Under the pieces are notes generated by a model. It was not told the origin of the DNA. It did no database searches and saw only the letters and a list, made by a program, of their open reading frames with translations. This document shows positions 1-219 of a stretch of DNA of 219 bases, piece by piece. This stretch comes from Escherichia coli (lineage in GTDB: Bacteria; Pseudomonadota; Gammaproteobacteria; Enterobacterales; Enterobacteriaceae), in assembly GCF_003334785.1 (NCBI RefSeq), contig NZ_QOWV01000095.1. One strand, 5' to 3'. A program made the position numbers and the translations under genes. Position 1 is the stretch's first letter. Each line of letters starts with the position of its first letter.

Positions 1-34
1 TAGGCCGGATAAGGCGTTCACGCCGCATCCGGCA
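1..34 (-). repeat. REP element, Y-like (GCCGGATG type), copy 1; left end possibly truncated by the window edge
   Basis: Reverse complement of 1-33 reads gccggatgcggcgtgaacgccttatccggccta, the classic E. coli REP sequence. Imperfect palindrome with outer arms gccggat (4-10) and atccggc (27-33). Confidence 0.9.
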
Positions 35-47
35 GTCGTGCGCAGAT

Positions 48-83
48 GCCTGATGCGACGCTAACGCGTCTTATCAGGCCTAC
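48..83 (+). repeat. REP element, Z-like (GCCTGATG type), copy 1
   Basis: Plus strand reads gcctgatgcgacgctaacgcgtcttatcaggcctac. Imperfect palindrome with arms gcctgat (48-54) and atcaggc (73-79) and inner arms acgc/gcgt, ending in the REP-typical ggcctac tail (77-83). Confidence 0.9.
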
Positions 84-100
84 AAATTCCCGCGCCATCC

Positions 101-135
101 GTAGGCCGGATAAGGCGTTCACGCCGCATCCGGCA
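101..135 (-). repeat. REP element, Y-like, copy 2 (complete, including the terminal G at 101)
   Basis: Identical to copy 1 shifted by 101 bp. Reverse complement of 101-134 reads gccggatgcggcgtgaacgccttatccggcctac. Confidence 0.9.
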
Positions 136-148
136 GTCGTGCGCAGAT

Positions 149-184
149 GCCTGATGCGACGCTAACGCGTCTTATCAGGCCTAC
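149..184 (+). repeat. REP element, Z-like, copy 2
   Basis: Identical to 48-83 shifted by 101 bp. Confidence 0.9.
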
Positions 185-201
185 AAATTCCCGCGCCATC
201 C

Positions 202-219
202 GTAGGCCGGATAAGGCGT
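202..219 (-). repeat. REP element, Y-like, copy 3, partial (truncated by the window end)
   Basis: gtaggccggataaggcgt matches the first 18 bases of the copy at 101-135; the window ends before the palindrome is complete. Confidence 0.8.

Follow-up and report, generated by a model that had tools for sequence, protein, structure and literature searches.

A BIME-2 array of variable length between mhpT and mhpE of Escherichia coli

BIME-2 elements, defined by Gilson, Bachellier and Hofnung and summarised in Ton-Hoang et al. 2012 (PMC3333891), consist of y and z2 REPs arranged in tandem and in inverse orientation, with a short S linker and a flank of s, l or r (PMC3333891). Copies within one locus are well conserved and their number differs between strains, and TGCC|TGAT sites are present in z units and absent from y units (PMC3333891). 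BIME-2 elements act as strong, transcription-independent gyrase sites and are over-represented among gyrase cleavage sites, y units being cut more often than z2 units (PMC6379681). Transcripts of the REP325 array bind HU and help to condense the nucleoid, and the complementary RNA works in vitro too (PMC4550694). BIME-2/REP arrays, the conservation of units within a locus and copy-number polymorphism are thus phenomena already known, described since the 1990s. Here we analyse a stretch of E. coli DNA of 219 nucleotides, which as a whole we call the window, and compare the array from which it comes with these systems. An initial annotation, made from the sequence alone, missed that the repeated unit is a classical REP/BIME-2 module, an element for which such behaviour has already been described.

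Identity and anatomy of the repeated unit

Direct string comparison showed the window to be a perfect tandem repeat, with positions 1-101 identical to 102-202 and positions 1-17 identical to 203-219. TRF returned a period of 101, 2.2 copies, 100% matches, 0% indels and a score of 438, and a repeat-family search of the window recovered the same repeat families. All three approaches agree with the zero mismatches between copies that the initial annotation had reported, and chance could not produce 118 matching positions in succession at one constant offset. The window captures only part of its array: at the sole locus at which it occurs exactly, the array extends on both sides with non-identical units, to the left with a 99-nt first unit (A) and to the right with a unit that carries three substitutions (D), followed by a terminal lone palindrome. 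Because these outer units differ from those of the window, the description of the copies as 100% identical covers only two or three inner units and not the entire array.

The unit is a BIME-2 module composed of a Y palindrome, a head linker, an inverted Z2 palindrome and a tail linker (Table 1). Its two palindromes, in the inverse orientation of y and z2, align to the two hairpins of naRNA4, which are named Y and Z2 (PMC4550694); the assignment to z2 as against z1 rests on this alignment and on the tandem, short-linker context. TGCC|TGAT occurs only in the second palindrome, which fits the z-type assignment of that palindrome, and the Z2 unit holds both this motif and GGCC|TAC, as described for z iREPs (PMC3333891). 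The first imperfect palindrome, at 4-33, reads GCCGGATAAGGCGT-TC-ACGCCGCATCCGGC (GCCGGAT...ATCCGGC) and is preceded by GTAG; the second, at 48-79, reads GCCTGATGCGACGC-TAAC-GCGTCTTATCAGGC (GCCTGAT...ATCAGGC) and is followed by CTAC. GTAG therefore lies 5' of each palindrome foot, as CTAC on the inverted copy. It is found at 101-104 and in truncated form at 1-3, where the window begins, with CTAC at 80-83 and 181-184.

The head linker is a short S linker of 12 nt and not the long L linker with an IHF site of BIME-1, and because it is unlike the REP325 linker we regard it as specific to this locus. Multiple copies (2.2 in the window, 4.4 in MG1655) stand in extragenic tandem in the interval that separates the mhpE stop from the mhpT start, and their number varies from 0 to 7 full units across genomes. 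Both strands of the window score above the gathering threshold of the naRNA4 model. Folds of the whole window as RNA gave long-range pairing between Y and Z2 with strong z-scores, a consequence of the palindromic architecture that is uninformative about function.

Table 1. Features of the 219-nt window, with the basis on which each was assigned
Feature	Position	Strand	Basis and details
Full BIME-2 unit, copy 1; unit type C of the mhpT-mhpE array	1..101	+	TRF period 101; equal to unit 3 of the MG1655 array
Full BIME-2 unit, copy 2	102..202	+	Same as copy 1; TRF, repeat search, string comparison
Third unit, first 17 nt (start of Y palindrome), cut by window end	203..219	+	Repeat family D2
Y-type REP palindromic unit	1..34	+	Inverted repeat I11; first hairpin of Rfam naRNA4 model; without the TGCC|TGAT site that marks z-type units; (G)TAG foot on + strand; stem arms 4-17 and 20-33, loop 18-19; recurs at 102-135, truncated at 203-219
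Head-to-head linker GTCGTGCGCAGA, 12 nt, "S" position of BIME-2	35..46	.	Read from sequence; recurs at 136-147
Z2-type REP palindromic unit	47..83	-	Inverted repeat I15; second hairpin of naRNA4 model; GTAG foot on - strand ("iREP" on + strand); stem arms 48-61 and 66-79, loop 62-65; recurs at 148-184
Tail-to-tail linker AAATTCCCGCGCCATCC, 17 nt	84..100	.	Read from sequence; recurs at 185-201; near-identical tail linker in REP325
Rfam RF02564 naRNA4 match (Y + Z2 double hairpin)	3..80; second 104-181	+	85 bits on + strand, 62.7 bits on - strand; gathering score 59.5
ATCAGGCCTAC, natural IS621 insertion target	73..83; second 174-184	+	Target sequence from PMC11208160; once per unit

Several other identities were considered and rejected. 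The open reading frames of the window are only 22-39 aa long and unsupported, which excludes a coding repeat; a CRISPR-like array is excluded because the whole period repeats and there are no unique spacers; and the other Rfam matches, all to microRNA families of plants and animals, score far short of the thresholds of those families and amount to hairpin-derived noise. In some genomes RefSeq/PGAP lays a "hypothetical protein" over the REP array (NZ_CP172817.1 and NZ_CP100941.1, in the mhpT-mhpE interval). Given the shortness of the open reading frames, these calls are probably spurious.

The mhpT-mhpE locus and its alleles

Sequence related to the window was found in all 5,426 complete E. coli genomes, at a median of 32 places per genome. 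The full 219 nt matched at 100% in two of the 5,426, the Norwegian pig isolate 2015-01-466 and XL10-Gold, and both exact matches lie between mhpT and mhpE, with both genes on the minus strand of the window. Searches of GTDB and of metagenomes used an exact 198-nt core of the window that includes all diagnostic positions. This core had no match in GTDB representative genomes and was found in three metagenome contigs (9, 45 and 186 kb), in all of them at mhpT-mhpE. The only plasmids that matched well were F' factors with a lac-mhp segment, which carry the MG1655-type allele. An origin from a plasmid or phage was rejected, the plasmid matches being this F' lac-mhp segment and the phage matches covering 35 nt only. 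Two Campylobacter phage records (MG065686.1, 110192-110226, and MG065691.1, 63897-63931) contain these 35 nt, identical to an E. coli Y-type REP unit; an E. coli REP stretch is odd for a Campylobacter phage and may reflect contamination or chimeric assembly. A literature search for mhpT together with REP found no paper.

To describe the alleles we call the first, 99-nt unit of the mhp array A, the window unit C and the terminal lone Y palindrome p; relative to C, unit B has changes at positions 19, 90 and 98 and unit D at positions 78, 90 and 92. The MG1655 array reads A-B-C-D-p. The pig isolate 2015-01-466 and two of the metagenome contigs carry A-C-C-D-p, the third contig carries A-C-C-D'-p' with SNPs in the flanks, and XL10-Gold carries A-C-C-C-D-p.

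Array length was read from the span of matches to a query made only of the flanks, 600 nt on each side. The flanks were present in 4,924 of the 5,426 complete genomes, with both in one place in 4,829, and were unmatched in 502 (~9%), where the whole locus is absent or replaced. One genome has a truncated mhpT beside a 4-unit array. Copy number was then scored in two evenly spaced samples that together gave 108 distinct genomes with both flanks present. Besides the terminal palindrome, 0, 1, 2, 3 and 4 full units were found in 61, 12, 7, 3 and 25 of these genomes, so that 56% of sampled strains have a single palindrome only at the mhp site. Outside the sample we found 5 units in XL10-Gold and in ETEC L6_E562, and 7 units in DLI.5a. 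The initial annotation had proposed a VNTR-like locus of variable copy number, and the range of alleles bears this out: the same unit count conserved across many strains, which it had named as evidence to the contrary, is not what related strains carry at this locus. The 5-unit allele of ETEC L6_E562 (NZ_LR883000.1; ~650-1200 of the extracted segment) is natural and reads A'-B''-B-C-D, with B duplicated rather than C and an additional 6C>A change in one B copy.

Seven unit orders occur on K-12-type flanks: A-B-C-D, A-C-C-D and A-C-C-C-D, together with A-C-D (XL1-Blue, TOP10), A-[19T]-D (PSS-08-1), A-D (NCTC13148) and A-B-C-[41T]-B-C-D (DLI.5a). Six of the seven have flanks with 0 mismatches to MG1655 in 1,100 nt, and the DLI.5a flank has 1 mismatch in 862 nt. 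Laboratory derivatives of K-12 differ among themselves, with A-B-C-D in MG1655 and F128, A-C-D in the XL1-Blue chromosome and TOP10, and A-C-C-C-D in XL10-Gold; the array span of Stbl4 and Origami2 equals that of XL1-Blue. The accession numbers of XL1-Blue, XL10-Gold and Stbl4 are consecutive and those of TOP10 and Origami2 lie nearby. Because a shared assembly pipeline could have shaped these particular alleles, we treat the differences between laboratory strains as provisional.

Gain and loss of units

We consider it very probable that the window is the inner part of an mhpE-mhpT BIME-2 array whose units are gained and lost by misalignment and conversion-like overwriting. Neighbouring direct-repeat units, which are 94-100% identical, would allow sister or nascent strands to pair out of step by one or more full units; units would then be added or removed in 101-bp steps through slippage during replication or unequal homologous exchange, and the sequence of one unit could be copied over that of the next in conversion-like patches. 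The identical pair of C units in the window would be the product of the latest such event, which may have been a duplication of C (A-C-D to A-C-C-D to A-C-C-C-D) or a replacement of B by C (A-B-C-D to A-C-C-D). The agent may have been RecA-dependent exchange, RecA-independent slippage or action of the REP transposase; this enzymology, like the direction of the last step, is something that we infer, whereas the identity and locus of the element, its copy-number polymorphism, the hybrid units and the lack of divergence in the flanks are shown directly.

Hybrid units mark individual exchanges. In PSS-08-1 the 19T-only unit is a B/C recombinant and the array is one unit shorter, which is what a single unequal exchange of B with C leaves on the deletion side. 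The 41T-only unit of DLI.5a, in an array three units longer, joins a 5' portion of D to a 3' portion of A, and is the duplication product of exactly one unequal exchange between D and A. Both kinds of hybrid are expected products of single in-register unequal exchange. The A-C-C-D allele equals A-B-C-D in length and has all three B-specific bases replaced, as would result from conversion over 80 nt or more or, equally well, from loss of B (giving the observed A-C-D allele) followed by duplication of C. In other lineages, variant bases are common to different units, as expected from exchange within the array. The presence of many unit orders on near-identical flanks implies that the array rearranges faster than its flanks gain point mutations and that the C-C adjacency is young. 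The recent duplication by slippage or unequal recombination, or the gene conversion, that the initial annotation had put forward thus gains support from the varied unit orders and hybrid units on flanks 0-1 base from MG1655.

The REP325 array of MG1655 (NC_000913.3, yjdN-yjdM; 4806-5385 of the extracted segment) has a 100-nt period and 5.8 copies, two of its units being 100% identical, so that perfect identity between units is found in a second BIME-2 array too. Units share on average 98% identity inside REP325 and 94% inside the mhp array of MG1655, as against 88.6% between the two arrays, with the differences between REP325 and mhp units lying mostly in the head linker and the Z2 loop. Identity that is higher within arrays than between them indicates that units multiplied in place and were not inserted singly.

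As the initial annotation had cautioned, the identical copies, or their count, could instead be the work of an assembler, through collapse, inflation or looping; in the extreme case the window would be a loop contig from a k-mer graph, made of one unit and a k-1 overlap. The source sequence of the window is only 219 nt long, and 219 = 101 + 118 is the length of a period-101 de Bruijn loop written once at k = 119, an agreement of arithmetic only; such a contig would still demand real reads over at least 219 periodic bases. Perfect periodicity extends over 339 nt (A-C-C-D) or 440 nt (A-C-C-C-D), which exceeds the length of a typical short read and leaves the count beyond what short-read assemblies can fix, and the laboratory-strain assemblies with unusual alleles have neighbouring accession numbers. 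However, the C-C junction with all its diagnostic positions spans just 122 nt, and a single read can therefore prove it. The exact window also lies inside five independent long assemblies (the complete pig-isolate chromosome, the XL10-Gold chromosome and the three metagenome contigs described above), one of these contigs differs from the others in neighbouring units and flank SNPs, and the metagenome scan returned only long contigs, none of 219 nt. We judge an assembly artefact unlikely.

We find it similarly improbable that multiplication of the units was due to the REP-associated tyrosine transposase (TnpA-REP/RAYT; yafM in K-12), which would cut CT sites of the inverted REP or of the linker and rejoin the strands. 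In vitro, TnpA-REP cuts BIMEs at TGCC|TGAT, GGCC|TAC and linker C|T sites and yields products with added REPs, and the authors proposed this cleavage as a route of BIME amplification, although their paper reports no amplification by TnpA-REP in vivo (PMC3333891). Every unit of the window holds both TnpA-REP motifs (47-54 and 78-84, read directly). XL10-Gold, a strain described as recA1, moreover carries an expanded allele. Yet direct repeats of ~100 bp are well known to undergo slippage without RecA, and expansion in a recA1 strain consequently needs no transposase. The observed gains and losses are of whole units in register, which ordinary misalignment explains without a dedicated enzyme, and the inferred interval of the D/A exchange (unit positions 25-40, + strand) is shared sequence without a CT dinucleotide.

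Two further possibilities, which even taken together seem to us distinctly unlikely, concern the pace and the meaning of array change. The differences among laboratory K-12 strains (4 units in MG1655, 3 in XL1-Blue and TOP10, 5 in XL10-Gold) may record RecA-independent, possibly REP-transposase-driven, amplification within decades of culture; or the length of the mhpE-mhpT array may be a tunable, fast-mutating setting rather than neutral. If the latter were true, each 101-bp step would alter how many gyrase sites and RNA hairpins separate the mhp catabolic operon from its transporter gene, and mhpT expression or local supercoiling would shift.

Function, practical use and comparison with known arrays

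REP hairpins stabilise upstream mRNA. By analogy with the BIME/REP family, the mhp array may supply gyrase sites, mRNA-protecting stem-loops and HU-binding transcripts. A transcript that reads through from mhpE would carry the minus-strand hairpins of the array. A promoter scan of the MG1655 mhpT-mhpE intergenic region found no promoter-like site, and a terminator scan of the same region found one terminator-like site, inside mhpT. In the supplementary files of PMC6379681, mhpE and mhpT are not mentioned. Since 56% of the strains sampled have just one palindrome at the mhp site, the length of the array is probably near neutral.

Roles of this kind could in principle keep the units identical through selection on each of them, as a gyrase site, an mRNA-stabilising hairpin or a naRNA4-like HU-binding RNA, and not through recent duplication. 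Among 12 distinct 101-nt units of the mhp locus, the loops and linkers, which make up 37 of the 101 unit positions, hold 8 of the 11 variable positions where ~4 are expected (binomial P = 0.017), and this concentration indicates that the stems are constrained. That BIME-2 elements are preferred gyrase cleavage sites (PMC6379681) and that REP325 RNA acts jointly with HU (PMC4550694) points the same way. However, selection on stems leaves the identity of linkers and loops unexplained, the units at the mhp locus differ from one another in most strains, and a given number of identical units is evidently not required where 56% of sampled strains have a single palindrome and 502 of 5,426 genomes lack the flanks. 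We therefore regard selection as a highly improbable source of the identity, which we continue to attribute to recent rearrangement within the array.

Each unit also contains the natural target sequence of IS621, as given in PMC11208160 (Table 1), so that the copy number of the array sets the number of docking sites for this element. In isolate SC475 (NZ_LR778148.1; 2650-3945 of the extracted segment), IS621 is inserted at exactly this target of the mhpT-mhpE array. The junction reads ...TTATCAGGCCT^[IS]^ACAAATTC and falls in the CTAC tail of the Z2 unit. IS621 belongs to the IS110 family and is a bridge-RNA recombinase element.

As a discovery the array carries little weight, being real but ordinary. 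Its practical meaning is that the BIME-2 family should be recognised and masked before tandem repeats are called novel, and that copy numbers taken from short-read assemblies are unreliable for the mhp array. The locus does provide a clean series of alleles, some with recombinant units, whose flanks are identical or nearly so, and it could serve as a PCR-sized marker or as a reporter of repeat instability in E. coli.

Set against the described systems, the array shows no essential difference from BIME-2: it has the same inverse y/z2 palindromes, head and tail linkers, extragenic tandem copies, conservation of units and variable number. With REP325/naRNA4 (RF02564; Qian et al. 2015, PMC4550694) it shares the Y + Z2 double-hairpin module of ~100 bp in tandem. 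It differs from REP325 in locus, mhpE-mhpT as against yjdN-yjdM, and in head linker and Z2 loop, the units of the two arrays being 88.6% identical on average; the genes that flank the mhp array also lie on the strand opposite to the better-scoring naRNA4 orientation. MLVA-type VNTR or minisatellite loci likewise have a unit of ~100 bp and undergo stepwise gain and loss among close strains. Unlike such loci, the mhp array is built from a family dispersed across the genome, with ~32 matching places in each genome.
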